From: an uncultured virus (IMG/VR IMGVR_UViG_3300031335_000002)
Lineage: Duplodnaviria > Heunggongvirae > Uroviricota > Caudoviricetes
Virus record (IMG/VR): IMGVR_UViG_3300031335_000002
Strand: one strand, 5' to 3'
DNA length: 64,000 nucleotides
Shown: one piece after another, positions 1 through 20,573 of the stretch
How the letters are laid out: the number at the start of each line of letters is the position of its first letter
How positions within the stretch are numbered: position 1 is the stretch's first letter
Notes under the pieces: model-generated
What the model saw: the letters and a program-made list of their open reading frames with translations, nothing else
Told to the model about the DNA's origin: nothing
Database searches by the model: none
Made by a program: the position numbers and the translations under genes

Positions 1-69
1 TTGAGCGTTGGGTTGATGAACAGTTTATACACATGTTCAGGTGTTAGCTTTCAAAGCCCGTTTATTGCT

Positions 70-261: not shown

Positions 262-297
262 AGTTGTGCCCTTTCATTGAGCGTTGGGTTGATGAAC

Positions 298-342
298 GAT
301 GAACTTTCGTTCATTATAGATGCTTCGTTTTTCTCACTTTTT
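298..342 (-). promoter_or_regulatory. class C promoter-like motif with hairpin (AAAACGAAGCATCTATA|ATGAACGAAAGTTCAT), copy 1
   Basis: Repeated at 658-702 and 1792-1836; always upstream of small ORFs; ends in CTATA like T7/SP6 promoters. Confidence 0.6.
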
Positions 343-429
343 AGTGGGCTTTTTAGCAACTTGAGCGTTGGGTTGATGAACAGTTTATACACATGTTCAG
401 GTGTTAGCTTTCAAAGCCCGTTTATTGCT

Positions 430-621
430 CTAAACCAGAGCAACAATAAATGCAACAATTGGAAACTGTGCAATTATTGCAGTAAAAGCATAAGCTATTG
501 GGGCTGCCCATACTGCGTTATAAACGGTTGCTCCAACAACAGTAGCAATTTTCATTGCAGCAAAGTTGATCCCAAAAGAACCTAAGATCGCAACGAAACC
601 AGAGATAGCAATAGCAAACAT
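430..621 (-). CDS. small hydrophobic membrane protein, copy 2
   Basis: Identical to 70..261. Confidence 0.7.
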   Translation of the reverse strand: MFAIAISGFVAILGSFGINFAAMKIATVVGATVYNAVWAAPIAYAFTAIIAQFPIVAFIVALV

Positions 622-657
622 AGTTGTGCCCTTTCATTGAGCGTTGGGTTGATGAAC

Positions 658-702
658 GATGAACTTTCGTTCATTATAGATGCTTCGTTTTTCTCACTTT
701 TT
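658..702 (-). promoter_or_regulatory. class C promoter-like motif, copy 2
   Basis: Identical to 298-342. Confidence 0.6.
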
Positions 703-826
703 TTCGTACGTTTTCCTACTTTGTTACCAAGTTTGTTCTTCTTTAACCACCGAATCGCACATGGGGCTTAAGCAGGGCGGATTGAGAAACACTTGCGGTG
801 GAGATTGAAGTAGACAGAAACGCGGG

Positions 827-1180
827 TCATGTGTCAAGTACCTCCGTGTTCAGGTTGTATTCGGTGGCAAGATAACGCATTTTGTTGATGAACTTCGGAA
901 GGAAGTCTTTGCCATCGTTGCAGTTATCATGGGTGCTCTGTAAGTCTTGGAAAAAGTCTATGTCTGCTTTGATGAAGTCGGGGACTTGTTTGGGGTTGGA
1001 TATAATTATGTCCATGATGGACCCATAGCCGTCCCATTTTTTGGGATCTTCTCCATCTGGGATGAATGGACGTATTGCACATCCTGACCCGCTGTAAGTA
1101 CAGCTTATACTATCGGCGCTTTTCTTGCCTGTGGAAATCAAGTGCCGAGCAGCTTTGTCAAAGGCTTCTTGACGTGTCAT
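827..1180 (-). CDS. hypothetical phage protein
   Basis: 117 aa ORF with GAGGAG RBS. Confidence 0.75.
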   Translation of the reverse strand: MTRQEAFDKAARHLISTGKKSADSISCTYSGSGCAIRPFIPDGEDPKKWDGYGSIMDIIISNPKQVPDFIKADIDFFQDLQSTHDNCNDGKDFLPKFINKMRYLATEYNLNTEVLDT

Positions 1181-1230
1181 TTAAAGTACTCCTCAGAGTT
1201 GGCTTCGATGTAATTGGCGGTCCAGAATAG

Positions 1231-1476
1231 TTACTTTTCCTTGGTTATAGTGATACCTATTTTTTCCCCCTGATAAATGAATCTCTTAATCTCTTCATTA
1301 GGGAAGTGCCTTAATTTTTGAACAGAAACTACCCCGTCATAGTAGAACACAACAACCTCGGTGGGATCATCAGTGTAGAGTGCAATACACTCTTCTTCTG
1401 GTTTGTCTTTCATATGGAAGTAAAAGCCAACAGGTTCTTTAAGTTCCGGTATGACTTCTTTATCGAGTATCAACAT
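1231..1476 (-). CDS. hypothetical protein
   Basis: 81 aa ORF with AAGGA RBS. Confidence 0.7.
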   Translation of the reverse strand: MLILDKEVIPELKEPVGFYFHMKDKPEEECIALYTDDPTEVVVFYYDGVVSVQKLRHFPNEEIKRFIYQGEKIGITITKEK

Positions 1477-1498
1477 ATTGATCGTTCCTTTTTGGGGG

Positions 1499-1756
1499 TT
1501 ATAGTTCAGATGGGTCGGTTATGATCTTTGTTGAGTTTGGATCATGTATGGGGTATCGGGATCCTCCTTTGTTTTCTCCTATTACAGTGTGATTGTTGTG
1601 TGCCGCCCATTGAAGAAATGATACGTAGATACCAGAGCCAGCTGGTATATTAAACACTGCTACCTTATCTTCTCCGTAGTTTCCTTCAATGTCTTTAAAA
1701 ACATGAAACTCTGTTTCGCCCTTTAGCTTAATAGCCCTAAGTATAAATAGGCTCAT
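1499..1756 (-). CDS. hypothetical protein
   Basis: 85 aa ORF directly downstream of class C motif copy 3. Confidence 0.7.
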   Translation of the reverse strand: MSLFILRAIKLKGETEFHVFKDIEGNYGEDKVAVFNIPAGSGIYVSFLQWAAHNNHTVIGENKGGSRYPIHDPNSTKIITDPSEL

Positions 1757-1791
1757 TTTTTATCACTTTCCTTGTGTTTGGGTTTTCGGAG

Positions 1792-1836
1792 GATGAACTT
1801 TCGTTCATTATAGATGCTTTGTTTTTCTCACTTTTT
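1792..1836 (-). promoter_or_regulatory. class C promoter-like motif, copy 3
   Basis: One substitution relative to 298-342; similarity continues to about 1854 versus 360. Confidence 0.6.
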
Positions 1837-2148: not shown

Positions 2149-2175
2149 ATTATACAAAACCTTTCTGATAAAATA

Positions 2176-2202
2176 GGCCACCCCTCGAAGTGAGAGATGA
2201 CC
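2176..2202 (-). terminator. GC hairpin after tape measure gene (terminator or processing site)
   Basis: GGTCATCTCTC-ACTTC-GAGGGGTGGCC followed by TATTTT; near-identical stem at 47696-47722. Confidence 0.55.
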
Positions 2203-2217
2203 TTAGTTTGGATTATC

Positions 2218-5200
2218 TTAGTATACGCCAACTTCCCTGTTGTAGGACCCTACTCCACCGGCAATGTCTGGGATCATTGTAAGAACCTCTTTACGAGTTT
2301 GACGAGAGATGTCACCAGTGATGTTGATGTTAAACACCTGAGTATCCTTTGACTCTGTGGATCTATTATTAGTTCTAGCATCTTGGGTAGTTGTAACAAT
2401 CTCACCCGGTTTCAGTAAGGCAGGGACCGAGTCCTTACCTACCTGAGCACCCGGGATAAGAGGAACAGTACCACCACGGTCAGCTCCAAATCCAAATAAA
2501 CTAAAAGCACTAGAAAGTATACCTGATAGACCACCTCCTCCACCGAGTCCACCGAGAATATCAAACAGGCTAGAGGTAATTCCATCAAAGAATTCTTTTA
2601 TACCTGCAGTCTCAATTAAGGATGTAACAAATGCGTCAATGAAGGTGTCAACAACAGTTGAGGAGAATTTATCAGCAAAAGCCATAATACCACCTTCAAG
2701 ATCACCCTCTTTGAAGACCTTTCCTAGACCCTCTCTCAGACCGTCTCTAAGCCCATCAGATAGCCTCTGAGAAGTAGACAGCATAGAGTCGAGTCTAGCT
2801 TGAGCGCTAGAAAGCTCATTGTTAGCTCTCGCAATCTCTTCCGTATTATTAGCGCTTATGAGACCACGCTCACGAATGATACGGTTGATCTCTCTTTGGA
2901 GTTCTATTGCTCCAGCGCCACCACCAAGCACTTCAGGGCTAAACCCTGCGGCCTCTGCTGAGTTAACATTACCATTAGACAGGATTTTCTCTATTTCAGC
3001 TTCCTGATTCCTGATAATATCAAGCTGTTGTTTACGAAGGCCAACATTGGTAAGAGCAGAGTTGTTAATACGCTTTTCTGCTGCTTCGATCTTCTTGAGC
3101 GAAGAGAAGAGTGAGTTAGTTTCTCCACCAGTTAGGCCGACTAATCCTTCTATTGTTAGACCAATATCACTTAGCAGTCTTTGAATAGGAGTATTGGTAG
3201 TACCACCGCCACCACCACCGCCATTGCTAGTATTCAGACCCCCACTAGAGATAGCATCGGAAAGAGCCTTCCCTCTTGCCTTTAACTTTTCGATTACTTT
3301 GTCAATAGTTGTATCATCAACTTCGCCACCTGCTGCAAGAGTATCGCGAGCAAATGCAGCTGACAAGAACCCAGAAGCGATTTTACCAAGATTAGAAATA
3401 AGGCTATCCGGAGCATTAAGAAGTTTATCAGCATCAATTGAGATACCTTTTAGGGCAAGAGCAGAATTAATAACTTCAATGATCTGATCACGAGTAGCTT
3501 CGCCCTTAGCAAGGTCTTCTGAGAACAACTGGATATTAGCGGATTGAGAAAGCAGGCCAAGTATTTTACTAAGCTCAGCCTCATCTTGCTTAAGATTTGC
3601 AAACAGTCTAGCATTCTCATTAGTCACAACCGGCAGAGCACCAATTGCTTCCATTTGCTCTCTAACGTTCTCAAGCTCAGTTAGAGTTGATGAGATATCA
3701 GAGAACCCACCAAGGCTGATCTTAGTTGTCTCTATGCCTTCTTGGATACCAAAACTAGTGGCATCACTAGCAATCTGAGCGATCTTAGCGGGATCAATAA
3801 TATCACCGACTTCGTCCGCTAGTCTTGTAAAGTTTGCTTGAGCAGATCCATCTCGTAGTGCACTTGTAATAGTCTGTTCTAGGCTTGTTTCGGCCTCAGC
3901 CAAGAAGGATCTAGCTCTAGCAACATCACCATCGGTAGCGTCTCCAGCTTGTCTTCTAGCAAGGGTATCTTCTAGATTTCCTCTTCCCGCTAGAGCAGAT
4001 GAGAACGCATCAGAGATAAGCTTAGACTCTGAAGTAGAAATTAGAGATCTGTTACCAAGAGTATTTAGGCTCTGGTCCTCAAGTGCTCTTACAGCATTCT
4101 CAAAGTTTTCAGTTGCTCTTTGTCTAGCAACAAGCTCAGGGTTCCTACGAGCGGCTTCATCAAAGTTTGAACGAGCATCTCTAACATTACGATCCCTAAT
4201 AAGCTCAAGAATAGGGTTAGTAGTATTACTCTTCAGCGGGTTAAGTGTCGCATTACCAAATCGTTCTTCCGAAAGGGCAACAATCAGTTCATTGATAGAG
4301 TTGGTAAACTCTGTTGAGAACTCAGAAGGGTCTCTGTTGGCAATACCACCTAGGAGGGCGGCAGTATCTTCTCCAAACAGAGATTCTATTTGCTCCGGTG
4401 TTTGGTTTATCTGAAGGGCAGAAGCAAATCTAGTTAGACCTTCCGCTGTAACAGGTCCTTCCCCAAGTGTCTCTGCAATGTTAGCAAGAATGTCACTTTG
4501 TTTAGAGAAGTCTGATTGTTCCCCACCAAGGAATACGGTAATATCGCTAAGAAGATTTCTGAAATCAGCGAAGCCCGGTCTATTTTGAACACTTAGAGCT
4601 GCGGCAACCCCTGTATCTCTGTTAGCTGCCTCATCTGCTGCTTTATCAATAGCGGCAGTAGTTCTTTCTTGAGCGGCCTCAAGACGGCTTGTAGTCTCTG
4701 CTGTAGCACTACCATAAGTTAGAATTTCTTGGTTGTACTTGATCTGGATAGCCTCAAGACTATTAACAGAGTCAATGATCTTACCTGCTGAAACATCACT
4801 AAGAGCTTGGAAGTTAAGAGTTTCAATACTCTCTTTGTTTCTTCTATTCTCAAATGCATTACGACCAAATTGACCGCGAGCAGCAATGGTACGAGACGTA
4901 GAACGAACATCAACCGCATTAGAAACTGTAGCTTCGTTTAAGAGGCCAAGCTTACGTCTAGCGTAGTTTATTTGGCTATCAAACTTTCCCCTGAAGGTAT
5001 CTCCTTCACCAAAGATAAGTGTATAGGCAATACCGCCAACTACAACTGCAGCTGTAATAGTGGCAATAATCTTAAATGCTAAGGTAGCAATCACACCTTT
5101 AAGAAGAGTAGGAATAGCTAAGAGCGCCCGGCTAAGTAACCCAAGGATAGCAGAACCAAAGCTTTTGGCTGTATCAATAGCAAGACCAAGACCAAGTTTT

Positions 5201-7662
5201 CTTCCAGCAAGACCTACCGCCTGCTCTACAATACCTGAACCGACAACAAGAGCAGCAATAGACGCAGCAACAATGGTAGCGACCCCGTTTGCTCCATCGC
5301 CAGAACCGGCAGAAGCCATACCTGCACCGGCAACAAGAGCAGCAATAGACGCAGCACCAACCCTACCGAAAGAACCCATACTACGAGTAGCGCGCCTTAG
5401 TGAGGTAGGAAGACTAGAGAAGATAGCTTGCATCCTAGCTAGTGCTGGAGCTGCAAGGTTCTGTACGATACCACCCATAGCGGCAATAGCAGGAATAGCG
5501 TTTGTACGAACAGCATTACCAAATGCGTTAACTTTTGCTTTAATATTATTTTTACTAAAGGCATCAAAGAAGGGTTGGAACACTGGGTTAAGTACAGTAC
5601 CCCCACCGCGTCCTCGACGGCTAGAACCACGGCCTGCTCTCTGGCCCCGAGGAGTACCAAGAGAAAGGAGACCAACAATTCTACTTTTAAGAGTCCTACG
5701 TTGGGATACACCTAAGAGACCATCAACAAAGGTTTGACCTAGGGCTGCAGCCGCTAAGATACCTTTAAAGGTCTTAGGAAACAGTAAAGCAAAAGAAGCG
5801 ATAAATGCTATAGACCCTGCAATACCTGCTTCCTTGAACAGACCTATAAGGCCTGCACCCAGAGCGGACACAAGTCCAGAGATGATAGCAGGAAGCGCTG
5901 TCACAATTTGTTTGATAGCTTCCCCAATTACCTCACCTACCATCGAACCAAAGGCAGCAAAGACCTTTGGTGATCCTACGGCTTCAACAAGATTAGCAAC
6001 AAGAACCGCTAGGAACGCTGGGCCAATTTTATTAGCAATTTTGCTAAAGGCTGCAGCGATAGTCCCTGTACTAAAGACAAAGGTAAACGCTGCTAGGATA
6101 GCTGTAGTAAAGGTTTTTCTAATCTCAGGGGCAAGACTTCTGATTGCATCGACACCTCTAGAGAATCCCCCAGAAACAGCATCGATAATAGTTTGCCTGA
6201 TCGATTGAATACTTTGAGCGGTGGCAGTTAGGTCAATATCAAAGTTTAACCTCCCCCGACCAGCGCTGTAGATAGCTTTAAAGGCACTAGTAACGTCATT
6301 AGCGAATGATTTTACTTTATTGAGAACAACCGGGAGATATTTATCTGCTAGGTTGGCAATACCCTCCATTGTATCTGTCCAGTAAGAATTACCAACAACT
6401 TTCTCATAGATATTAAAGAAGAATTCAATTACGTCTGAAGCAAAGTCTCTCACAACTCTAGCTGCATCACCTAGGTAAATAACAGCGAAGTCTCTAACAT
6501 TTCTGAAAGTTCGTTCTAAGAACTGGAATGCGGAGGTATCACTTAGTCTGTTGAATTGGTCCTTTATAAAGTCTATTGAGCTACCAAAGTTGTTTTCTAT
6601 GATATCAGAGATGGTTCTCATAGACACTCTGGCAGCATCTATCATACCTTTATAAATGCCTTCTAGTCCTTCTAGTCCTTCATACAGGCTAGAGATATCA
6701 AAAGAAGACAGAGACTTTTTCATTACCCCTAAACCAGAAACAAAGTCTTTAACAACCCTACCGATTATCTTTGGGATCTCTGCTAGTCTATTTCTCCATT
6801 CTACTACGGAAGCAACAATAGATTCTCTGTTACCAGCAATAGCATTTGTTAACCTAGAAATTTTATTTGTAAATGAACTAGTAATTCCTAGCGCTTTAGA
6901 TAGTTCAGCAGTAAGTCTACCTACTTGGTCCCCGAGAAGAACAAATGCTTTACCAGAAGTAAGCTCAATGTTCTCAAACTCTTTAGCGACAGCCTCAGAC
7001 TGCCCAAGCAGGGCCGAGAATACAACATCAGAAGTCAGCTTACCATCAGCCGCAAGACCACGAAGCGCGCCGCGAGCTACACCCATGTTATCCGCGATGG
7101 CCGTAGCGACACGAGGTAGCTGCTCTAGCACCGAGTTAAGCTCTTCACCCCTCAGTGTACCAGCAGACAGACCCTGCCCTAGCTGTACCAGAGCAGCCCT
7201 CTGTGACTCTACAGAACCACCAGAGATAGCAGCGGCTTGGTTTAGCGTGATAATAGACTTATTAATGTCCTGAATTGACCTGCCAGTACCCTTTAGGGAT
7301 TGTCCCATACGGTTAAAGGCTTGGGCGGTGGATTGTACAGGGGCTTTAGTCTGTAAAGAAATCCTGTAGATCGTATCCATCTGTTTAGCTAGTTCTTCAC
7401 CACGACCAACAACCAGAGCAACTTGGTTCTCCATGTCAACAAAGTTATCTGTTGCCCGGTTAATACCTCTTGTAAGAGCTGTACCGGCGAATGCGGCAGC
7501 AATACCAGTGGCTAGCCTTGCAATGTTCTTTGTAGCACTAGCGGCGGTGTTTCCAACGCTCTTAAAGTCACCGTTTAGTCTACGGATATCTTGACGTGCT
7601 TTAGCAGTGTCAGCCGTAACGCGAATACGGACGCCGCGCCCCGGTCCTGTGGGTAATACCAT
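2218..7662 (-). CDS. tail tape measure protein
   Basis: 1814 aa, Ala/Gly/Leu-rich; N-terminal tape-measure motif LVQLGQGLSAGTLRGEELNSVLEQLP; C-terminal GKDSVPALLKPGEIV; follows tail chaperones. Confidence 0.95.
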   Translation of the reverse strand: MVLPTGPGRGVRIRVTADTAKARQDIRRLNGDFKSVGNTAASATKNIARLATGIAAAFAGTALTRGINRATDNFVDMENQVALVVGRGEELAKQMDTIYRISLQTKAPVQSTAQAFNRMGQSLKGTGRSIQDINKSIITLNQAAAISGGSVESQRAALVQLGQGLSAGTLRGEELNSVLEQLPRVATAIADNMGVARGALRGLAADGKLTSDVVFSALLGQSEAVAKEFENIELTSGKAFVLLGDQVGRLTAELSKALGITSSFTNKISRLTNAIAGNRESIVASVVEWRNRLAEIPKIIGRVVKDFVSGLGVMKKSLSSFDISSLYEGLEGLEGIYKGMIDAARVSMRTISDIIENNFGSSIDFIKDQFNRLSDTSAFQFLERTFRNVRDFAVIYLGDAARVVRDFASDVIEFFFNIYEKVVGNSYWTDTMEGIANLADKYLPVVLNKVKSFANDVTSAFKAIYSAGRGRLNFDIDLTATAQSIQSIRQTIIDAVSGGFSRGVDAIRSLAPEIRKTFTTAILAAFTFVFSTGTIAAAFSKIANKIGPAFLAVLVANLVEAVGSPKVFAAFGSMVGEVIGEAIKQIVTALPAIISGLVSALGAGLIGLFKEAGIAGSIAFIASFALLFPKTFKGILAAAALGQTFVDGLLGVSQRRTLKSRIVGLLSLGTPRGQRAGRGSSRRGRGGGTVLNPVFQPFFDAFSKNNIKAKVNAFGNAVRTNAIPAIAAMGGIVQNLAAPALARMQAIFSSLPTSLRRATRSMGSFGRVGAASIAALVAGAGMASAGSGDGANGVATIVAASIAALVVGSGIVEQAVGLAGRKLGLGLAIDTAKSFGSAILGLLSRALLAIPTLLKGVIATLAFKIIATITAAVVVGGIAYTLIFGEGDTFRGKFDSQINYARRKLGLLNEATVSNAVDVRSTSRTIAARGQFGRNAFENRRNKESIETLNFQALSDVSAGKIIDSVNSLEAIQIKYNQEILTYGSATAETTSRLEAAQERTTAAIDKAADEAANRDTGVAAALSVQNRPGFADFRNLLSDITVFLGGEQSDFSKQSDILANIAETLGEGPVTAEGLTRFASALQINQTPEQIESLFGEDTAALLGGIANRDPSEFSTEFTNSINELIVALSEERFGNATLNPLKSNTTNPILELIRDRNVRDARSNFDEAARRNPELVARQRATENFENAVRALEDQSLNTLGNRSLISTSESKLISDAFSSALAGRGNLEDTLARRQAGDATDGDVARARSFLAEAETSLEQTITSALRDGSAQANFTRLADEVGDIIDPAKIAQIASDATSFGIQEGIETTKISLGGFSDISSTLTELENVREQMEAIGALPVVTNENARLFANLKQDEAELSKILGLLSQSANIQLFSEDLAKGEATRDQIIEVINSALALKGISIDADKLLNAPDSLISNLGKIASGFLSAAFARDTLAAGGEVDDTTIDKVIEKLKARGKALSDAISSGGLNTSNGGGGGGGTTNTPIQRLLSDIGLTIEGLVGLTGGETNSLFSSLKKIEAAEKRINNSALTNVGLRKQQLDIIRNQEAEIEKILSNGNVNSAEAAGFSPEVLGGGAGAIELQREINRIIRERGLISANNTEEIARANNELSSAQARLDSMLSTSQRLSDGLRDGLREGLGKVFKEGDLEGGIMAFADKFSSTVVDTFIDAFVTSLIETAGIKEFFDGITSSLFDILGGLGGGGGLSGILSSAFSLFGFGADRGGTVPLIPGAQVGKDSVPALLKPGEIVTTTQDARTNNRSTESKDTQVFNINITGDISRQTRKEVLTMIPDIAGGVGSYNREVGVY

Positions 7663-10856: not shown

Positions 10857-11975
10857 TTATGCGTGGTAAATTGGAAGGATCGGCAGGTTTAGAGCCGAAA
10901 CTTTACGTGTCCAAGAAGCTGCTGCAGAGAAAGTAGCGTTAGTAGCAAACGCGTCCTCAGCACCAGCCCAAGCATAACCCTCAGGGTGCCACACGTAACC
11001 CCAACGGTACCAAATCTCAGTCTTACCACCACCAAGGTAGACAGACGCATCACGATCTATCTCAACCGGAGTTGGGATTTCAATCGGAGCGAAAGAAACA
11101 GAGTTGGGTTTCATAAGGAAAGTACACTTAGTAGACCGTTCGTTTAGATTGCCAGCACTAACCGATGCCATCTGAGTGAAACGAGTAGGCAGTAGGCGGA
11201 ATTTACCATCAAAGATAGTAGTGAATTCCAGTTCACCGTCCGTTACTCGGTCCTCATCAACGAGGTTAGCAGCGCGGATCTGTGCAAGGGTCTCCGGGGA
11301 GGTAACCATGTACATGTAGTCCGGTTCGTAGTCCTTAAACGCCATACCAATTGCTTGGAACAGACGCTCACCACGAGCAGCACCAACACCCGATGCATCA
11401 AACAGCTTACGCTGATCAGGTGCACCAGAAGCAGCAGCACCAAAGACACCAGAAGAAGCGTTGAGATCAACAAAGAAACCAGTTGCTGTGGCATCAGGGT
11501 CAGTATCAAAGTCTACAAGACCACCCTCACCTGCACCGCTAGCATCACCTAGGGCGACCTCTGAACGAGCAACACCTTGTAGGACGTTGTAGAAGGCTTT
11601 GCCTTCGTCTTCCATACGTGTCTGTGCGAAGTCACGAGCAATCTTTTTAAGCCCGTCTTCACCAGAGATCACTTGTTGCACGTTAACTTGCTCAGCACCG
11701 TGCGAACGAGCGGTCTTGATGTATTTTGCAAGGTTAGTGCTGATGTTTGTCATTGTACCTTCAGTGTCGTCAGTTGTTGACATGACGTTGACTTCCGGCT
11801 CAAGAGGCTTGTACCAACGGAACTGGCCAATATAGCTTTCTGAGTTACCGTCAATACCCTCACGAGTACCTACGACACCAGTCGTGTGGATGTTTTTGGA
11901 AGTAGTGTACGCTTCGTGTGAGTACTGACGTAGTACTTCCTCAATGACCTGAAAGTTAGCATTAGAGATAGGCAT
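10857..11975 (-). CDS. major capsid protein
   Basis: 372 aa, follows scaffold; C-terminal VEIDRDA...YVWHPEGYAW typical of this coat protein family. Confidence 0.85.
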   Translation of the reverse strand: MPISNANFQVIEEVLRQYSHEAYTTSKNIHTTGVVGTREGIDGNSESYIGQFRWYKPLEPEVNVMSTTDDTEGTMTNISTNLAKYIKTARSHGAEQVNVQQVISGEDGLKKIARDFAQTRMEDEGKAFYNVLQGVARSEVALGDASGAGEGGLVDFDTDPDATATGFFVDLNASSGVFGAAASGAPDQRKLFDASGVGAARGERLFQAIGMAFKDYEPDYMYMVTSPETLAQIRAANLVDEDRVTDGELEFTTIFDGKFRLLPTRFTQMASVSAGNLNERSTKCTFLMKPNSVSFAPIEIPTPVEIDRDASVYLGGGKTEIWYRWGYVWHPEGYAWAGAEDAFATNATFSAAASWTRKVSALNLPILPIYHA

Positions 11976-11996: not shown

Positions 11997-12761
11997 TCAT
12001 CGGACGCCCAATTTCTTTCGTGTTTGGGCTATCATCTGATCTTGTGGAACATCGAAAATCGATTTAGGTTTGTCTTGAGGCACACTTGTCGAAGTCATCG
12101 ACGTAGTAGAACTCCCAGTATTTTGCTTCGGTTTGAAAAGAAACCTGTTTTCTTCATCTTCTAGATAACTAGAAACAGTAGACTCGATGTCTTTACCATC
12201 GCGAGAGACCCAACGACCACTGTCGTCTTGAATAAGAGAATCAACAATGTCCCGACGTGCAGATGCGCGAGCACGATCGTTACGGAATTCTGCAGTACTT
12301 AGAGAGGCGTCAACGGCGTTATCACGACGAAGACTCACGTTTTCACCCCTTAGAGTTTCTAGTTCAGAATTCATATCAGAGATCTGCGCTTCTAGCGCTT
12401 CTTTGTCTTTACCTGCTGATTTCATAGCTTCAATCTCAGCTTCCCTCTCACGCTTTTTAGTGTCTTTGAGTTCTGCTTGGGTATCTTTGAGTTTCTTATC
12501 AAGAGCATCCATCTTTTCTTTGAATTGCTGTTTCAAAACCTCAAGCTCTGAATCTTCTTTCTTATTCTTGTCTTTTTCTTTGTTCTTATTATCAGAGCCA
12601 TCAACGTCAGCGTCCGCATCAGTTGTTTCCTCTTTGATATCATCTTCAGTGTTTCCGTTTTCGTCATCTTCGTTTGAAGCATTATCTTTTTCGGATTGAG
12701 CATCATCAATTTTCTTACGAAGCTCTTCCATTTGTGCTTTGAGTTCTTCTTTAGTAGCCAT
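11997..12761 (-). CDS. capsid scaffolding protein
   Basis: Acidic coiled-coil protein upstream of capsid gene; ATG 12761 with AGGAG RBS. Confidence 0.8.
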   Translation of the reverse strand: MATKEELKAQMEELRKKIDDAQSEKDNASNEDDENGNTEDDIKEETTDADADVDGSDNKNKEKDKNKKEDSELEVLKQQFKEKMDALDKKLKDTQAELKDTKKREREAEIEAMKSAGKDKEALEAQISDMNSELETLRGENVSLRRDNAVDASLSTAEFRNDRARASARRDIVDSLIQDDSGRWVSRDGKDIESTVSSYLEDEENRFLFKPKQNTGSSTTSMTSTSVPQDKPKSIFDVPQDQMIAQTRKKLGVR

Positions 12762-12822
12762 TAAAATTTCTCCTACAGTCACTGACTGTGTTAGCCGTTG
12801 AGTTACAAACTCTCAGGTCGAA

Positions 12823-15800
12823 TTAGGGTCCTACACCATAAAAATCTTTATTAGGTACGTCCGTCAATATGTCTTCCCTAGTTATAGGGTTAGGCGGATC
12901 AATAAGACCAAGTTGTTTTGCTTCAGCGAGAAGTTCATCGTAGGTAGCCTTAGGCAACCCCTCTTTTCGCATTTCAGCAAGAGTTCTTCGGATAGTATCC
13001 CCCTCTAGGGCATCCGCATAGATTTCACGGAGAGCAGCTTTAGCGTTATCTGCTTCCGCTAGATTAGTAAAGAAAGCGTCGTGGATTGTACCAGTAGACT
13101 TGCCCTCTTTGCGGCCCCACAAGTGGAACTTGCGAACAATAACCGCGTCGTTAGAATGGTTTCCATTCACACCCAGACCAATAGAAGCATCTTGGACAGA
13201 TCCTTTTCCAAGGAGCTTGCCGTCTTCAGCTTGTGCTGCATAGATGTTCATAACCTTTCGTCCTGTTATGGGATCCCTGAATTCAATTCTCTCTTGAAGT
13301 TCCGGTCGGTATCTTTGTGTCATAACCTTACCGTCAAAAGTCACCCACGGGATGTCTACCTTTTTAGTTTCAGTTGTAAAGCGTTTAGATACTCTTTTCC
13401 AGAAATTAATGAATTCATTTGTAACAGGTGCTCTGTCAGACAGCTTCTCTGACATTAGCGCAGAAAGTTCTTTAAAGTCATTTGGGCCAATCAGGCCTCC
13501 ACGAGCACTAGTCACCTTAGCAACAAAGTCTGCCGTGTCGCTGTGAATTTCTTCTGCTTCTTTTAGAAGCCTTAGACCAATAGACTGGTCCTTGTTCACC
13601 ATATTGATAAGCTCACCCCTAAAGGCTTTCAGATTAGCTGAAGTAAGTTCTGCACCAATCCTATCTGCTTGTTTGATCTGTGAATCAATTATCCTAAGCT
13701 GACCGCTTAGCTCTGATTTAGTAATTGTAGTAAAGCCTCTTTCATCTAGAAGTTTAGATAGCTTTGCTGCAACGTTAGCGGTCTTAGTTGCCTCACCGGC
13801 ACCGTAGAAACTTACCCAATTTGTTCAATGGGGTGGTTATTCCCATCCGCATAACAATAACTTAGCTATGCTGCTACATGTTTCCATGCAGATCAGACTA
13901 TATCATCAACCTCTCTGTAGTAGGTTGCCCTGCGCTTCCACTCGACACTTGAGTGTACTCCTCTCGGATAGTCGTTGAACGTTCCTTATACAATACTATA
14001 GTATTGTATGAGGCTTCGCTGCTGATTGTCTTCACCGTTACGTGGTCAGAGTTTCCAGCAATTCACAGGGTTTAAAGAACACAATATAAGTTTATGTTCT
14101 GCGCTTTAGCACCTTTAGCAAGATCCTCCCAAGTCAAGTTCGCGTCACGGAGCGCCTTAATCTTGTTGAAACGAGGATCATTAATGGTGTCAATAGCCAC
14201 TAGGTCATAGAGTCTATTCTTTTGTGTCGTAGGAACAACGTTAGAGGCTTCCGAGACCATACGGTCCCCAGTAGAAAGCCCGATAATTTGTGCACCAGAG
14301 GACGACGCATCGTTCTCTATCATAAGACGTGTTTTAAATGATTTGAGTTTAGCAGCATCTCTCATGTCGCCGCCAACGTGGTCATATACACGAGCATACT
14401 CTAAAGCCATACGAGACATCTTAGGTACCTCGGGTCCTTCTAGACCCTTGATTAGGGGGTGTTCTAGGAACTCCCTCATACGCCTGTCTCTCTGGGTTTC
14501 TTGCTGCATTAGCCTTCCTAGAGAAAGGATGTCTTCCCGCTTTCTCTGAAAGATAGCCTTACGACCACTAAGGGTAAGAGCCTCTGTACCGGGTCCAATC
14601 ATAGCTCCAATCTGGGTTTCTAGCTCATCTACTGCATTGAGAGTCATTGGAGTAGCAATAGCATCATCTAAAAAGGGTCGAACCATCTCACCACCAGTAG
14701 GTGTCAGGTATCCACGGTGGTAGACACGGCCACGGCTATCCATGTATGTATCCGACCAAAAGGGTTTACCACGATTTGTCTGGTACCTGCCTGCTGTCAT
14801 GAAACCAAAGCCTTGGTCACCACGTTTGATGATCTCGTGTCTAAACTCATTAAGGCCATCGTAGTAATCTGTGTTACCGCGAGGGTCACGGAACCTAACA
14901 ACATCATCCATAAAGTTAAAGAACACCGGATCTGTTTGGTATTGTGTACCAGAGGCTTGGTTTAGAGCATTAGCAAAGTCTGCATCAACCTGATTTGCGT
15001 CAAAGCTAGCGTACTTACGTCTAGATATGATAGGTCTGCCGGTAACATTACCACGAGCATCAAAGGCTTCCTTCTTACCAGCGCGGACAAACTGCCTATC
15101 TCTATCAAAAGAAATACCCATACGTCTGCCAACAACAACTCGTCTTTCAGCCTTCTGTAGCTCAATAAGACGTTTGTCGATTACCTCAACCTCTCTAGAA
15201 ACTGTGTCTCCCCAGAAGCCTGTGGCACGACCTGTCTCTACATCTAGAACACCTCTGCGGGTCTTACCACGGTAGTTGAGACGGATCATCTTTCTGTCCT
15301 TCATGTAATCAAGGACTCTGGAACCGTCTTTGTGGTAGTCTTGTAAAGTGTGTTTCTGGAATGGGTTAACATCTTCTAGATCTTTTGCCATTTGTTTACC
15401 AATAGCAATAGAAAGACCGTCGTAGTCTGTCATTTGTCCAGAACCAACAAGCTTTACTGCTTTAGAAAGAGAGTTGAGTACTTTGTCATCCATTACCTTT
15501 GATGTAGGATTCTTCTTAGATGTAAGAAATTCAAAGTCAATAATTCTACGAATACGTTCATCGATACCACGTTCAAATCTAACAGCTAATTCGTCTGTGG
15601 GTGTTCTATACCATTTTAGGTACTTAGCAAATGAGGTTTTCTCCCAACGCTTCTTAAGTGTTTCGGGCTTCTTGACTTTTCCTAGAAGACCTTGGAAATA
15701 AGACCTTGGTGGGCTTTTCCCTCTGAAGTAAAGCTCTTTCGAGAGTTTAGCTCCAACACCAGTACGGAAGGAATCAATAGACCTCTGATCTGCAAGAAGT

Positions 15801-17494
15801 CTATCCTGTAGCTGATCAATCTTGTAGTAATCACCCATAAGCTGGACTTGAGGTCCTCCTTCTTTAGCACCAAAGAAGCGAGAAAATAAGTTGTATTTAT
15901 CTCTCTGTCTAGTATCAAGAAGACGGGCAGTGTTCTGAACAGCAAATCTATTTTCTGCTCTAAGTACATTAGCAAAGTTGTCCCAAGGCTGCTTGTCTTT
16001 CCTAGCTCGCTCTATTACAACCCTAAGGTTTTCAATAGCAACTGTTTGCTGATTTGTTGACACTTTCTCTTCTAAGGAGTTAATCACAGATCCAATGAAG
16101 TCTTTATCTTCAGATTGGAGGACTTTAGAGTTCCTCATGAAGTCAAGACGTTCTTGTAGAAGTGTGTAGTTAGGATCATAAAGGTTGTTGTTTCTTGCCT
16201 CACCTGTAAGGGGGTCGAAGCTATTATTACTTTCATCGAAGATGTTAGCTGTACGGCGACGAGCGGTTTGTTTACCTTGCAGTGTTGTACCTTTAAAGTC
16301 CGTTAGAGAGTAAGTTTTACCGAGATCATCAGCATCATTGACAAATAGATCTACAACCTCTCGCTTATACTTAGCATTCCTGACGAGGGTGCTAGGGCGC
16401 GCCACAGCGATCTGTGTTACGACATCTTCACCTATCGACTGCTTAGGGCGGAAAATGTTAGTAAGATTAGCAGCACGACGTCTCAAAGCAGTAATAGAGA
16501 GTGCGCTACCTTGAGGTGTCACGAAGTTATCGGCTTTGACTTCTCCTTTTCGGAAAAGATCTGCCTTTTCTTGACTACCAAGGATCTTTGTTTGGACATC
16601 ATAAGCCTGACGTTTAAGCCACTGACCAAAGGTTTCTTTCTCTGGGGGAGATCCTGTTAAAGAACTTCCTTTCGTGGTTTCAAGAGCAGCTAAATTGATC
16701 CTATCAGACTCTTTCTTTAGCAGTTCGGCTTTGCTCTCAAATATAGGAACAAGGGTAGAACGGCAGTTAAAGTGTAGTGGAGGGGCAAAACGCCTATCAC
16801 CTACATCATAGATCTTACCATCATGATAACGACAAATGCTAGAAGTACGATTATCAAGCATTGCTTGGAACATGTAGCCTTTGATGGCTTCCTTGTTTTC
16901 CCCTACCGCACTAAACAGAGCATCGCGCTGCGTAGCTGTGATACCTGTACGAGAAAGAGTACCCGCTTGGTGGGCTGTCATCTTGGTTGTTTTGCTGACG
17001 TCACTAATAATTTGATTTTGAGACTTATTATCTCTACGACCACGCTTCAACCAAGTTTGTACCCTAGTTGTCTCACCACGAGCAATGTTCTCTACGTTAT
17101 TTTTGATAGCAGCATCACCGTTGATACTAGCGCCAGTAATATCTGCTAGATCAGCCTTGTTCTTAGGTCTACGAACGGAGAACCATCCTTTAGTGTGTTT
17201 TGAGATACTATCAGTGTAGAAATCTACCTCAGCACCATGTAGCTCTGTCAAATTTGTCTTCTGCCAAGAAAAGAGCTCTGTAGCAAAACGGTTTTGCTCT
17301 CGTCTGAATTTGTTGGCTATTTTCTTCTTTTGATCAATAGTAGTTGTTGCTAAGTCTTCCTTAACAAGCTTAACTAGAGACTCACGATGACGATTTACAA
17401 TACGACTATTACCAATCTGAATGCTCTCTTCGAACTTTCTAACGTCAGTAAGGTGATCAATCACCTCGTCGTTCATTTTCTGTGTAACATCCAT
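12823..17494 (-). CDS. MuF/SPP1-gp7-like head protein fused to T7/SP6-family single-subunit RNA polymerase; spliced, exon 1 17494-14094 plus exon 2 13816-12823, about 1464 aa
   Basis: MuF motifs LDNRTSSICRYHDG and PPLHFNCRS. RNAP motifs DSRGRVY, A (NDASSSGAQ), B (K-AQNM|VSFYG, formed only after splicing), NGNHSNDA and C (TIHDAF). AGGAG RBS before ATG 17494. Confidence 0.9.
13817..14093 (-). ncRNA. group I self-splicing intron (IA-like), 277 nt, no ORF
   Basis: P1 AGAACAU/GUGUUCU with U.G at the 5' splice site; P10 AAACUUAU/GUAAGUUU; P AAUUGCUGGAAA; Q AAUCAGCAG; P3 CCCUGUG/CGCAGGG; P7 GACUA/UAGUC; terminal G; removal restores the frame. Confidence 0.93.
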
Positions 17495-17664: not shown

Positions 17665-17740
17665 TGGCCGACCCGGAAGGACTCGAACCCTCACTTGAAG
17701 ATTAGAAGTCAACTGTTCTATCCTGTTGAACTACGGATCA
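17665..17740 (-). tRNA. tRNA-Arg(UCU)
   Basis: Cloverleaf, loop CTTCTAA, GGTTCGAGTCC, CCA end. Confidence 0.88.
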
Positions 17741-17792
17741 GTGTATAGTGTTTATAGTTTATGTGTGTCGTATCCTAGCTTAATCTTATGTA

Positions 17793-17868
17793 TGGTGGTC
17801 CTGCCGGGACTCGAACCCAGATATTACGATTATAAGTTGTACGCTCTAACCAGTTGAGCTACAAGACA
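17793..17868 (-). tRNA. tRNA-Ile(UAU)
   Basis: Cloverleaf, loop CTTATAA, TAGCTCAACTGGTTAGAGC D arm, CCA end. Confidence 0.85.
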
Positions 17869-17881
17869 TTGATTATTAAAT

Positions 17882-17968
17882 TGGTACGGGTAGAGGGAGT
17901 CGAACCCCCACGTCTTTTAAAACACTAGGACCTAAACCTAGCGCGGCTACCTATTTCGCCATACCCGC
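17882..17968 (-). tRNA. tRNA-Leu(UAG)
   Basis: CTAGG-TTTAGGT-CCTAG anticodon arm, long variable arm, CCA end. Confidence 0.9.
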
Positions 17969-17969
17969 A

Positions 17970-18047
17970 TGGTCCCCCCACCCCGGACTCGAACCGGGAG
18001 AACCGGCAGTTTAAGTGCCGTACGGTTACCAATTACGTCAGTGGGGA
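17970..18047 (-). tRNA. tRNA with UAA anticodon (Leu), short variable loop
   Basis: CGGCA-CTTAAAC-TGCCG; CCCGG-TTCGAGT-CCGGG; CCA end. Confidence 0.8.
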
Positions 18048-18065
18048 ATGGTACCGTGTAATTAG

Positions 18066-18140
18066 TGGTGGAAAGGGGAAGAATCGAACTTCCTACGCGC
18101 AGGGCTTCAACCTACCGCTCTACCTCTGAGCTAATCGGGT
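18066..18140 (-). pseudogene. tRNA-Phe(GAA)-like gene with non-pairing acceptor stem
   Basis: D, anticodon (TTGAAGC) and T arms plus CCA are intact; 5' ACCCGAT does not pair with 3' CCTTTCC. Confidence 0.7.
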
Positions 18141-18152
18141 AAATATAAATAA

Positions 18153-18206
18153 TGGCAGCTTAGGTAGGACTCGAACATACATGTGTTACCAGTCAGCCAC
18201 TAAGCT
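18153..18206 (-). pseudogene. 54-nt tRNA-like element lacking the anticodon arm
   Basis: Perfect acceptor AGCTTAG/CTAAGCT, T loop TTCGAGT, GCCA end. Confidence 0.6.
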
Positions 18207-18212
18207 ATTAGT

Positions 18213-18359
18213 CTATCCAGCGATGAGAGCAAGAAAGATCACAAAAGCTATTGCCCCGCCACCTACAAGGAGGCCAAGTGATTTAGTCTTAGACCAAGCT
18301 TTCACTTTATCTTTTGCTTCGATGACTTTTTCCTTTGCTGTATCAATGATGTCTTTCAT
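18213..18359 (-). CDS. small membrane-anchored protein inside the tRNA cluster
   Basis: 48 aa from ATG 18359 with AGGAG RBS; C-terminal transmembrane segment. Confidence 0.65.
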   Translation of the reverse strand: MKDIIDTAKEKVIEAKDKVKAWSKTKSLGLLVGGGAIAFVIFLALIAG

Positions 18360-18382
18360 TGTATATCTCCTGATATCGAATA

Positions 18383-18457
18383 TGGTTGCGCAGAGGGGAG
18401 TTGAACCCCTAGTACAGGCCTTATGAGGGCCGCGTGTTACCATTACACCACCGCGCG
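18383..18457 (-). tRNA. tRNA-Met(CAU), initiator-like
   Basis: C1xA72 mismatch, loop CTCATAA, TTCAACT T loop, ACCA end. Confidence 0.85.
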
Positions 18458-18534: not shown

Positions 18535-20148
18535 TTATTCTTGTACTTGTCCACCGTAGTCATTCATAGATCGAGCCATTTGGGCTACAGGGTCAGCCCT
18601 AATCTCGCTTACACCCTTTTCATCGTTGTAGTCGCCCGGAATGAAATCATTCTCCTTAGCGATATTAATAAAGACAGAACGAGGAATAAGGCCCATCTGG
18701 TACCACTCTGTAACAAGACGCATACCATCTTCACCCTGAGCCTGAGGACTAAAGTCCTTAGACATAGCAAAGTCAATATCTTCTGCTGTTAGTTCAAGAT
18801 CGTAGCGCCAGTTAATCATAAACGCAATAACAGACCGCATGGTATTAGAAATCTTCATATTAAGAGTACCAAGAGTGGCTGTCTGTGATGAGTTACGAAG
18901 CTCTAGTGCAATACCCGACTCTGTTGTCTCTGGGGCAAGCATACGAATACCCAGCTTAGCTAGTTCCTCTAGAGTTTGTTCAATAGAGTCCTTCATATCG
19001 CTAAGAGCAGCGGTAGGAGGAGTGAGAACATCCGCTGTAACACCGCTAGGAAGGAACATCATAGTACCTAAACCTTGGCTAGCAATCTTCTGCTGTTCAC
19101 CCTCTTCAATGTCTCCTATAAAGATAGGTGTGTAGGTAGCTGCGCCATACATCAAGTGGTTACGCCTAGAGATCTTATTGTAAAGGCCAATTTCTCGGTT
19201 AACAAAGGTTAATAGGATAGGCTCTTCAATATGAGTTTCACCGTCGAGAGGCCAAGCAGGGATACGTGCAAGACGCTTACCAAACTGTTGTGGTTTAAAG
19301 GTTTCATAAAGTTCATAACCAGTCTCTTCAATCCCTTCTTTTCCGGGTTTAAGACTGTTGTCAGTAATTTCTCCACCTTGAGCAGTGGCTGTAGAATTAT
19401 TTTCTTTACGATACTCATCAACAACTAGAAAACCTTCCCTATCAATGTAATGATCTCTTACGGTACTGACTAAGGTAGGATGCCAAGGGTTGTCATTTTT
19501 GTATACCGGAGTATAAAAACGAGTAATAAACCGTGTCATAGCCGGTAGGCCTGTAACGGGATGATATCCCTCAATAACGTTGATCACATTCTCTGCTGAA
19601 ATAAGAGAAGGATAAGGCTTTACATAGTTTGCCTGCTTTGGAGTCATGTTCTCAGTTTCTTCTGGGGATACAGAAGGAACATCAACATAAATCCATGAAT
19701 ATGAAGTTTGCATCTCTTCCCAGACTGCGTCATCAAGAAAGTGAAACAGAGACTGATTATCAGAAGTAAATCTGTGTCTAATCCAGTCAATCATTTCCAT
19801 CCTTAGAGTCTCTGGAATTTCATCAGGAAGTTCAAGATTAGATTCTTTTCTTAATAGAGCACCAGTCATTGAACGAGCGTACTGAGCAGTAACCCCCGGT
19901 AGTTCAGCTTCATCTTTATAGAAATTGTATTGATTTTGATCCATAGTAGGCGAGAAAGGAAGCAAGATGTTCTTCTTATTGCCATCATGATCAATGTCAT
20001 GAACAATCTCATCGTGGGCCTTTACAGCCTCTTGGCCTCGGACCACAGCTCGGCACTTCGCCCAAGTCGATCTAATAGAATCGTATTGATAGGACGGAGT
20101 ACCCACACTCGACTTGTTTACAGAGGTCGAGAGAGTAATTTTGGCCAT
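18535..20148 (-). CDS. portal protein (DUF4055-like)
   Basis: 537 aa; W..CRAVVRGQEAVK, KPYPSLISAENVIN; upstream of the MuF, scaffold and capsid genes. Confidence 0.85.
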   Translation of the reverse strand: MAKITLSTSVNKSSVGTPSYQYDSIRSTWAKCRAVVRGQEAVKAHDEIVHDIDHDGNKKNILLPFSPTMDQNQYNFYKDEAELPGVTAQYARSMTGALLRKESNLELPDEIPETLRMEMIDWIRHRFTSDNQSLFHFLDDAVWEEMQTSYSWIYVDVPSVSPEETENMTPKQANYVKPYPSLISAENVINVIEGYHPVTGLPAMTRFITRFYTPVYKNDNPWHPTLVSTVRDHYIDREGFLVVDEYRKENNSTATAQGGEITDNSLKPGKEGIEETGYELYETFKPQQFGKRLARIPAWPLDGETHIEEPILLTFVNREIGLYNKISRRNHLMYGAATYTPIFIGDIEEGEQQKIASQGLGTMMFLPSGVTADVLTPPTAALSDMKDSIEQTLEELAKLGIRMLAPETTESGIALELRNSSQTATLGTLNMKISNTMRSVIAFMINWRYDLELTAEDIDFAMSKDFSPQAQGEDGMRLVTEWYQMGLIPRSVFINIAKENDFIPGDYNDEKGVSEIRADPVAQMARSMNDYGGQVQE

Positions 20149-20199
20149 GTCCGGCCCTCCTTTCTGCTTAAATTACCTTAAATTAAGGGGTTTTCTCTT

Positions 20200-20217
20200 C
20201 TTTAACACATCGTATTT
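20200..20217 (-). promoter_or_regulatory. class B phage RNAP promoter (AAATACGATGTGTTAAA|GAAGAG)
   Basis: Same initiation region as class A with a T7-like ATACGA binding region; upstream of portal. Confidence 0.65.
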
Positions 20218-20410
20218 ATGTTTTGTCTGCTGTAGGATCCTCTCTTGAGATCTAAGGCTTGAGGCTCTTTAAAAGTACTTGTTTAAGCTATCAACAAACA
20301 ACAATGCTTTCGATTCAAGAGAGGTCCTCTTAGGGTCTCTTCTTAGCATCTACTGACTCCGATCTCGTCAGTAAGGTCCCTAGTTAGGATTCTTAAGGGT
20401 TTTCCCCTCT

Positions 20411-20428
20411 CTTTAACGTCACCTATTT
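20411..20428 (-). promoter_or_regulatory. class A phage RNAP promoter
   Basis: AAATAGGTGACGTTAAA|GAGAGG. Confidence 0.8.
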
Positions 20429-20555
20429 ATGTCTTTATTTACAAAGACTTATCTATCCTAAAACCATGAGTTTTGTCTAAATTTAGCATCTACTGACTCC
20501 GATCTCGGCAGTAAGGTCCCTAGTTAGGATTCTTTAAATTTTCTTTTTTCCTCTT

Positions 20556-20573
20556 CTTTAACGCATCGTATTT
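20556..20573 (-). promoter_or_regulatory. class B phage RNAP promoter
   Basis: AAATACGATGCGTTAAA|GAAGAG. Confidence 0.65.

Follow-up and report, generated by a model that had tools for sequence, protein, structure and literature searches.

Does a long-tailed phage carry into its host an RNA polymerase (RNAP) that is built into one of its own head proteins? This question is raised by a gene on the minus strand (17494..12823) of the uncultured Caudoviricetes virus IMGVR_UViG_3300031335_000002, of which a stretch of 64,000 nucleotides (nt), referred to here as the window, was analysed. An earlier reading of this DNA, made from its letters alone (the sequence-only reading), had proposed that the gene fuses a MuF minor head domain to a T7-family single-subunit RNAP and that the enzyme enters the cell with the genome. 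Polymerases in virions and cargo fusions of MuF have each been described before; their combination in this gene is well supported as an architecture, and the mechanism is a proposal. After splicing, the gene yields a product of 1464 amino acids (aa), here called MuF–RNAP. Its parts are the following, DSS3_VP1 being a cultured phage of Ruegeria pomeroyi with a homologous gene.

14094..17494, minus strand: exon 1, 1133 codons plus the AT of the Met1134 codon; its N terminus agrees with that of the DSS3_VP1 homologue
13817..14093, minus strand: group I intron of 277 nt (Rfam RF00028)
12823..13816, minus strand: exon 2, the G of the Met1134 codon plus 330 codons and the stop
15860..17494, minus strand: MuF / SPP1-gp7-type minor head module, aa 1 to about 545
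12826..15859, minus strand: T7/mitochondrial-type single-subunit RNAP module, intron included, aa ~546-1464

The listing of open reading frames (ORFs) and their translation give a first frame from the ATG at 17494 to a stop at 14072 and a second frame that closes at 12823; in the sequence, the start codon is preceded by AGGAG, 8 nt upstream. The interruption matches the whole RF00028 model (14103..13874) with 103.1 bits against a gathering score of 50 (expectation value (E) 1e-26), and its RNA fold has a z of -2.96. On inspection of the sequence, the exon end GAACAU pairs with intron GUGUUC to form P1, with a U.G pair at the splice site U14094; omega-G is G13817, and GUAAG of the 3′ exon can pair with CUUAU of the P1 loop to give a 5-bp P10. 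None of the intron ORFs of at least 20 aa matches a homing endonuclease. The intron splits the Met1134 codon (AT and G) inside motif B of the polymerase. The exons add up to 1133 + 1 + 330 = 1464 aa, and splicing rebuilds motif B as K1130-x7-Y1138-G1139, the counterpart of T7 K631, Y639 and G640. The sequence-only reading had given the same spliced length and had noted that motif B forms only after splicing, both of which the splice sites U14094 and G13817 bear out. The spliced junction, ...AKGAKAQN-M-VSFYGAGE..., equals the uninterrupted protein of DSS3_VP1 (...AKGAKAANMVTFYGAGA...). Relatives of the gene are encoded on 444 IMG/VR contigs, and the locus counts in this text refer to the best 80 loci among them or, where stated, to those with enough flank. 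In 80 of 80 intronless loci, the two exon products match colinearly, without a residue too many or too few. The group I intron is predicted to self-splice and to restore the frame exactly.

Because the gene and its intron are covered in full by single contigs of two separate DNA runs, each free of joints and with 9 differences, an assembly artefact, against which the sequence-only reading had cautioned, is excluded. The intronless joined form was not found among the contigs of four DNA runs, a comparison of contigs only that does not show its absence. Megablast of the gene against phage records returned only two 91-nt matches, in Vibrio phages and within the intron region.

In phages that have been studied, the MuF module binds the portal and places a few protein copies inside the procapsid; a portal-bound, low-copy protein in the virion is known for SPP1 gp7 only. 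Within the N-terminal part of MuF–RNAP, Pfam Phage_Mu_F (PF04233) matches aa 157-248 with 43.8 bits against a cut-off of 29.6 (E 4.8e-11), and the PHROG families phrog_241 (‘head morphogenesis’) and phrog_115 (‘minor head protein’) match aa 6-342 (E 1.6e-45) and aa 149-523, respectively. The MuF motifs LDNRTSSIC at aa 213 and PPLHFNCRS at aa 238 had already been picked out from the letters, and the above-threshold Pfam match together with phrog_241 confirms them. An AlphaFold2 model of aa 1-560, with a predicted local distance difference test score (pLDDT) of 88.1, resembles 89 BFVD models at E ≤ 1e-3. Those that carry a name are head morphogenesis or minor capsid proteins, in keeping with the Phage_Mu_F fold that had been expected; a MuF protein of 1192 aa from Xanthomonas phage Xp12, named as an ADP-ribosyltransferase, is among the matches. 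Foldseek of the same model against the PDB found no solved structure at E ≤ 1e-3. A complex prediction of the portal with MuF aa 1-345 scored 0.00 twice, in runs without controls, and speaks neither for nor against binding.

The remainder of the protein carries the catalytic landmarks of the T7 family in order. DSRGRVY (DxRGRxY) lies at aa 919-925 and motif A, DASSSG, contains D1062; beyond motif B, in spliced numbering, NHSNDA follows at aa 1353 and motif C, IHDAF, at 1378, with H1379-D1380, before the C terminus ...YGVGP. The PHROG family phrog_414 (‘RNA polymerase’) is colinear on both exons, aa 908-1104 of exon 1 corresponding to profile 380-553 and aa 122-285 of exon 2 to profile 633-788. 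A profile of 35 full-length homologues matched T7 RNAP chains only in the PDB, at E 1.2e-5 and in three colinear stretches. In this alignment, DSRGRVY corresponds to T7 DWRGRVY, D1062 to T7 D537 and H1379-D1380 to T7 H811-D812. Every T7-family motif named in the sequence-only reading is present on the minus strand. Across the 35 full-length homologues, there is no variation in DxRGRxY, the motif A Asp, the motif B K..YG, the motif C HD or the C-terminal ...YGxGP, which argues that this complete polymerase is active.

A structure model was made for the homologue P0090, an N-terminally truncated protein of 1180 aa that is 51% identical (window numbering is P0090 + 285). The AlphaFold2 model, built with 102 aligned relatives, has a pLDDT of 84.5 and a predicted template modelling score (pTM) of 0.80. 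Foldseek matches it to T7 RNAP at E 3.8e-20, and VIA-align places it closest to T7 RNAP, with Z 26-28 (for 1s77_D, Z 26.4 and a root-mean-square deviation of 3.5 Å over 533 residues, T7 42-883), against Z 21-25 for mitochondrial RNAPs and Z 13.5-15.9 for the N4 virion RNAP (vRNAP). The T7 RNAP fold and the superposable catalytic Asp residues that had been anticipated are thus both found, the latter aligning to T7 D537 and D812. As modelled, the polymerase fold would extend over aa ~546-1464 and include a T7-like N-terminal domain, thumb, palm and fingers.

Is the fusion a peculiarity of this one phage? A word-indexed search with aa 560-1133 gave 313 clusters at E ≤ 1e-3 among 8000 candidates scored. 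Of the 120 homologue clusters listed, 97 have a length of at least 1400 aa, and those that carry a name are called nothing but ‘SPP1 gp7 family head morphogenesis’ or ‘minor capsid protein’. When exon 2 was run exhaustively with HMMER against 1.84 billion representatives, no more than 56 clusters reached E ≤ 1e-3, and the sole ordinary free-standing polymerase among them is P0177 (E 7.7e-6). Among representatives of at least 1419 aa, Phage_Mu_F is found at E ≤ 1e-3 in 17 of 17 (15 above the cut-off) and RNA_pol in 16 of 17. The position of the gene is kept as well: it is preceded by the portal gene on the same strand in 32 of 32 related loci whose flank is long enough and followed by scaffold-like and capsid genes in 52 of 52. 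The MuF matches in 17 of 17 and this synteny together indicate that these polymerases form a clade of their own, which occurs solely in fusion with MuF and in the head-assembly slot. The fusion is the rule in a large family and obligate in the clade. In the window, the slot is framed by the following features.

18535..20148, minus strand: portal gene (phrog_145, E 2.4e-43), upstream in the same operon
17665..18457, minus strand: five transfer RNA (tRNA) genes, Arg-tct, Ile-tat, Leu-tag, Leu-taa and Met-cat (ARAGORN, Rfam)
11997..12782, minus strand: scaffold-like gene, 261 aa, named by position, downstream
10857..11975, minus strand: major capsid protein gene (phrog_247, major head protein)

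The portal at 18535-20148 upstream and the scaffold-like and capsid genes downstream agree with the portal–scaffold slot of the sequence-only reading. Only tRNAs lie between the portal and MuF–RNAP genes, the 261-aa ‘scaffold’ protein has no family match, and no prohead protease is found between portal and capsid.

The intron has counterparts among the relatives. Of the 120 listed homologue clusters, 17 have a length of 1129-1180 aa, and 16 of these stop within the motif B stretch AKxAKxxNMVxFYG, at no fewer than three points: after ..QN (as in the window), after ..NMV(x) and after ..FYG. Gene callers split the gene at the intron, and a 1140-aa product, P0004, is recorded in this way. In EBPR siphovirus 1, the gene breaks after ..AQNMV and an HNH gene precedes the remainder of the protein; Rfam finds no intron at this locus at the gathering threshold. 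From these protein ends, we infer several independent intron insertions into the ten-codon stretch of catalytic motif B. In two deep salt-lake metagenomes, contigs break in the intron core (13855-13905 and 14023-14058), with loose ends that lead into unrelated sequence, which suggests that related introns occupy other sites in the community.

A second, free polymerase is encoded beyond the window. The virus record G001, 99.6% identical to the window, overlaps it at both ends: G001 1-49474 corresponds to window 14532-64000 and G001 60664-61150 to window 1-487. From this overlap, the genome measures about 75 kb, 11.2 kb of which lies outside the window. In that part, G001 51514-54430 encodes a canonical T7-like RNAP (PF00940, 265 bits) of 732 aa, in exons of 267 and 465 aa, that ends ...DYAFA like T7. 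Its gene is split in the DxRGR motif, between FDFR and GRIYP, by a group I intron (53.4 bits) with a 172-aa HNH endonuclease gene, so both polymerase genes are intron-interrupted at catalytic motifs. The DSS3_VP1 equivalent is gp080, ‘RNA polymerase’, also of 732 aa. Among five partial related contigs, two (G002 and G006) carry the free RNAP, and the other three end before its expected place. With this second RNAP, the proposed scheme would be a two-polymerase relay rather than the work of one enzyme.

Which promoters might the two polymerases read? Motif scans point to two regions of the window.

20196..20570, minus strand: three phage-type promoter-like sites before the portal/MuF–RNAP operon
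311..1836, minus strand: early-region control elements, candidate early promoters (a 32-nt element and a 21-mer)

The motif TAGGTGACGTTAAAGA, which we take to resemble the SP6/T3 promoters, occurs in intergenic positions on the coding strand at window 55785, 39172, 39065, 38795, 28282, 20425 and 9039 and at G001 50826; a short G+C hairpin comes after every copy. A variant, TACGATGYGTTAAAGAAGAG (variant class TACGATGY), starts at 20570 and 20214, only before the portal. The SP6/T3-like promoter class is written as TAGGTGAC/TAGGGTGC, and its SP6-like core GTTAAAGA is common to the window and DSS3_VP1. In DSS3_VP1, ATAGGGTGCGTTAAAGA occurs six times, with two copies before the portal and none before the RNAP gene, and the ~10-kb early block of G001 that holds the free RNAP gene contains no SP6-like promoter. 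These candidate sites probably serve the middle and late genes, including the MuF–RNAP operon. Three phage-type promoters lie in an array within ~360-380 nt at each of two places, 38795-39172 and 20214-20570 (minus strand), in non-coding gaps of ~1.1 kb each, and the units of both arrays are partly repeated.

The 32-nt element, AAAAAGTGAGAAAA-N5-GCATCTATAATGA, starts at window 1836, 702 and 342 and at G001 58639 and opens the early block right after the tail genes. The 21-mer GTTCATCAACCCAACGCTCAA occurs five times overall, with window starts at 657, 381, 297 and 21. The 32-nt element is also present in DSS3_VP1 at 36237. Of 5 related viral contigs, 4 carry it too, at 7 sites that all lie on the coding strand, after the tail genes and before the free RNAP gene; a reversed-control scan gave 0 matches. 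It is conserved among relatives whose proteins are only ~60% identical, and it ends in CTATA, as T7/SP6 promoters do. The hairpins after it fold weakly (z -0.7 to -1.8), and an N4-style hairpin promoter is not claimed. Two further features of the early region were observed. A 360-bp tandem duplication with 100% identical copies (window 1-702, G001 60664-61150) holds in each copy a 32-nt element, a 21-mer and an ORF for a very hydrophobic protein of 63 aa. The first sizeable early genes, at G001 59021-59851 and 59989-60642 (minus strand), encode paralogous pentapeptide-repeat proteins of 276 and 217 aa with A[DN]LxX repeats, possibly DNA mimics or anti-defence proteins.

The composition of the protein was also considered. 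The only cysteines of MuF–RNAP are C221 and C244, both in the MuF module, and aa 245-1464 have none. The other window proteins contain 114 Cys in 15,789 aa (0.72%), from which the probability of none in 1220 aa is 1.5e-4, and the free RNAP has 7 Cys in 732 aa. The tape measure (2218-7662, minus strand; 1814 aa), a protein expected to leave the virion, has no cysteine, and 89 of 92 full-length homologues of MuF–RNAP are cysteine-free after the MuF motif. The lack of cysteine is a soft sign that fits a protein crossing the envelope.

We favour, with moderate confidence, an N4-like relay in which the MuF-fused enzyme is packaged and acts first. In this relay, MuF–RNAP would be made late in infection, together with the portal, scaffold and capsid genes, from the SP6/T3-like promoters, which the free T7-like polymerase most likely reads. 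The MuF module would place the fused polymerase in the procapsid, where it would be packaged with the DNA. At the next infection, the fused polymerase would leave with the entering DNA end or stay on it and would transcribe the early block, that is, the small genes, the genes of the pentapeptide-repeat proteins and the gene of the free polymerase. The free polymerase would then take over the middle and late genes. Packaging, ejection and the start of transcription by MuF–RNAP we infer by analogy with SPP1 gp7, MuF-cargo proteins and N4, and the promoter assignment is putative.

Several points weigh against this relay. Vinga and colleagues reportedly found, in 2006, no gp7 detectably co-ejected in vitro, and a MuF module is accordingly no guarantee of ejection. 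The copy number of SPP1 gp7 is only 1-2 per capsid (PMC5576092), and a protein of ~165 kDa could pass a siphovirus tail only in unfolded form. A perfect TATAAT, the sigma-70 -10 box, is present in the early element at all 4 sites here and at 7 in relatives, so the early genes could also be switched on by the host RNA polymerase. As the virion proteins of this phage are generally poor in cysteine (1 in 537 in the portal), the cysteine signal is soft. The polymerase structure was predicted on a 51%-identical homologue and not on the spliced protein of the window, and knowledge of the second RNAP and of some of the early region comes from the near-identical G001 rather than from the window’s own assembly. 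The sequencing runs found to contain the stretch include no RNA run, and splicing and expression are predictions. Rihtman 2021 contains no proteomics, the occurrences of ‘proteom’ there referring to proteomic trees.

The TATAAT boxes lead to the alternative that survives best, although we consider it unlikely. MuF–RNAP could be packaged and do another job at entry, such as gripping the DNA end, pulling in the genome by transcription or serving a few sites (for example, TACGATGY), while the host RNAP starts the early genes as in T7. Genome entry driven by transcription is established for T7 and N4, and SPP1 gp7 controls DNA exit rather than leaving with the DNA; in addition, a distinct promoter variant stands only ahead of the portal. 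However, no recognisable -35 box lies at 16-18 nt from the TATAAT of the early element, whose 27 specified bases, conserved at ~60% protein identity, far exceed what sigma-70 needs, and its CTATA end resembles that of T7/SP6 promoters. Between 12000 and 21500, a scan with the sigma-70 consensus gave 15 sites against 15.3 expected, a count that weighs neither way.

A second alternative, which strikes us as quite improbable, keeps the polymerase in the cell in which it was made. It would then be a late intracellular enzyme that is never delivered, perhaps tethered to the portal or procapsid and coupling transcription to assembly, or cleaved free. The location of the gene within the late structural operon is consistent with this possibility, and the two promoter variants could belong to two polymerases. 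Against it, the free polymerase already serves the intracellular work, and the fusion to a head module has been kept in all 17 long representatives. The polymerase part, unlike the free enzyme, is cysteine-free, and the lack of a prohead protease between portal and capsid does not favour release by cleavage.

It is very improbable that the polymerase module is an inactive domain exapted for DNA binding or as a structural part of the head. Such a role could be read into the weak Pfam RNA_pol (PF00940) scores: with the exons scored separately, exon 2 of the window alone reaches 18.7 bits against a cut-off of 22 and exon 1 is unmatched, and homologues score 20.9-40 bits. Inspection of the sequence also shows motif B to be without an Arg at the place of what is presumably T7 R627. 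On uninterrupted long representatives, 15 of 17 score 22.9-40.2 bits. Both catalytic Asp residues, the motif B Lys, Tyr and Gly, the motif C His and DxRGRxY are invariant in the 35 sequences, the C-terminal tail is conserved, and the whole T7 fold, N-terminal domain included, is recovered at Z 26-28, all of which argues against a loss of function. Finally, an assembly or annotation artefact joining two genes, for which nothing speaks beyond the habit of gene callers of splitting at the intron, deserves practically no credence and is ruled out by the spanning contigs, the 97 long homologue clusters among the 120 listed and the uninterrupted 1463-aa gene of DSS3_VP1.

The locus may have a wider meaning, on which we find the chances evenly balanced: a new, independently evolved delivery of a T7-type RNAP on a portal-associated siphovirus head protein, which would define how an entire family of abundant marine and saline phages (Naomviridae and relatives) infects, with the 32-nt element as its own promoter. 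The polymerase may be adapted to uracil-containing templates in those members whose DNA contains deoxyuridine (dU). Jumbo phages with dU-DNA, of the AR9/PBS2 type, also bring a virion polymerase and offer a parallel.

Among the closest known systems is gp108 of DSS3_VP1, with the ‘minor head protein-like protein’ of DSS3_PM1 (NC_055826 21242-25633); it has the same two modules in 1463 aa as against 1464 aa. It is 59.8% identical over exon 1 and lies in the same order of portal, tRNA, MuF–RNAP, scaffold and capsid genes, and DSS3_VP1 has in common with the phage of the window the second RNAP gp080, the core GTTAAAGA and the 32-nt early element. In DSS3_VP1, the MuF–RNAP gene has no intron, and an intron sits instead in the terminase gene (PMC8323127). 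The terms ‘RNA polymerase’ and ‘RNAP’ have 0 occurrences in the Naomviridae papers PMC8323127 and PMC12669031, and gp108 is annotated only as a head morphogenesis protein. Hosts and sources differ: DSS3_VP1 grows on Ruegeria, and the phage of the window comes from salt-lake metagenomes.

To our knowledge, virion-borne RNAPs are known in a few designs only, namely N4 gp50, the phiKZ/AR9 multisubunit enzymes, those of crAss-like phages and the tape-measure fusion of P23-45. In N4, RNAPII has two subunits and needs host factors, and the late genes use the host polymerase. The locus resembles N4 in having a T7-family polymerase among late or virion genes and a second phage polymerase, and the same logic of a packaged starter is predicted here. 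N4 is a podovirus, and its gp50, a protein of ~3500 aa without MuF, brings injection and encapsidation domains of its own, as PMC5512222 describes; the contrast with N4 drawn in the sequence-only reading was therefore correct. Nor does MuF–RNAP fall within the N4 mini-vRNAP clade, given its 1464 aa, its MuF N terminus and a PDB profile search that returned T7 chains only; its fold match is Z 13.5-15.9 to N4 vRNAP and 26-28 to T7. In the portion of PMC5512222 (Iyer 2017) concerned with them, N4-like virion RNAPs are said to occur only in N4-like phages. Thermus phage P23-45, which is long-tailed, likewise delivers a virion RNAP fused to one of its structural proteins, after which a second, non-virion polymerase takes its turn. 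That enzyme is a two-barrel (cellular-type) polymerase on the tape measure, whereas here a T7-type enzyme is joined to MuF.

With the RNAPs of T7, SP6 and T3 (Autographiviridae) and of mitochondria, the module has in common the whole fold, motifs A, B and C, DxRGRxY and a C-terminal tail at the active site. It differs from T7 RNAP in its sequence (~14-18% identity), its length (~920 aa against 883), its fusion behind a ~545-aa head module, its place in a structural operon, its lack of cysteine and its end, ...YGxGP instead of ...FAFA. With MuF-cargo proteins (Jamet 2017; Iyer 2017), it shares the plan of an N-terminal MuF beside the portal and an enzymatic C terminus proposed, in PMC5576092 and PMC5512222, to be delivered with the DNA. 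Those proposals and the match to the MuF ADP-ribosyltransferase uphold what the sequence-only reading had said of C-terminal cargo. The polymerase here, by contrast, serves the phage’s own expression instead of acting as a toxin or host-modifying enzyme, and the phages are lytic rather than temperate. Jamet 2017 (PMC5576092) has 0 occurrences of ‘RNA polymerase’, and in 12 of the 21 RNAP passages of Iyer 2017 (PMC5512222), none ties RNAP to MuF. No description of a MuF–RNA polymerase fusion was found in a search of open-access papers and bioRxiv.

If true, a T7-type enzyme on MuF would add another design of virion RNAP, the first in siphoviruses of ordinary size. It would account for the way in which Naomviridae begin an infection, and MuF would carry cargo for the phage’s own expression rather than for an attack on the host. 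As an orthogonal transcription tool, a single-subunit polymerase that is deeply divergent, lacks cysteine and probably has a new promoter is also of practical interest, and DSS3_VP1 on R. pomeroyi, as a cultured and harmless model, makes the idea directly testable.

The identity of the phage was assessed from its gene content. Among 50,697 phage records, the only full-length matches to MuF–RNAP are those of DSS3_VP1 and DSS3_PM1 (59.8% identity), which belong to the genus Noahvirus of the family Naomviridae, and of EBPR siphovirus 1 (27.5%). The order of head, tail, early, second RNAP and replication modules is common to the window’s phage and DSS3_VP1, as are regulatory elements, and by gene content and order the phage would be assigned to the Naomviridae as Noahvirus-like. 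The window’s genes are nearly all on the minus strand and include those for tape measure, capsid, portal, endolysin, terminase, rIIA/B, ribonucleotide reductase, primase-helicase, exonuclease and DNA polymerase. The stretch was found in 24 salt-lake or lake DNA runs. Naomviridae roseophages are reported to replace deoxythymidine by dU (PMC8323127), and the family is reported to be abundant yet nearly invisible to metagenomics, the dU-DNA of cultured relatives blocking direct sequencing (PMC12669031). In two ordinary salt-lake DNA runs, the word depth over 12823-17494 is ~1800-3600, and the phage is abundant there. With ordinary DNA runs reaching such depth, it may be asked whether the window’s phage has dU at all, which the depth neither proves nor excludes. 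The window ORF that is syntenic with the deoxycytidine monophosphate deaminase gene of DSS3_VP1 has no Pfam match.

Four further genes of the window were noted. A free-standing HNH endonuclease gene (1828-2181, minus strand; phrog_99, E 9.7e-26) lies between the tape measure and the first early element. The primase-helicase (55965-58682, minus strand) contains an intein in its DnaB-like ATPase part, with Hint at aa 506-580 and a LAGLIDADG homing endonuclease at aa 699-775. Homologues of rIIA and rIIB are encoded at 47748-50746 (minus strand; phrog_612, E 2.7e-115, and phrog_609, E 6.7e-72). Finally, 41214-41885 (minus strand) encodes a 223-aa protein of 18-nt-periodic repeats that matches YdcK beta-solenoid and bactofilin models.

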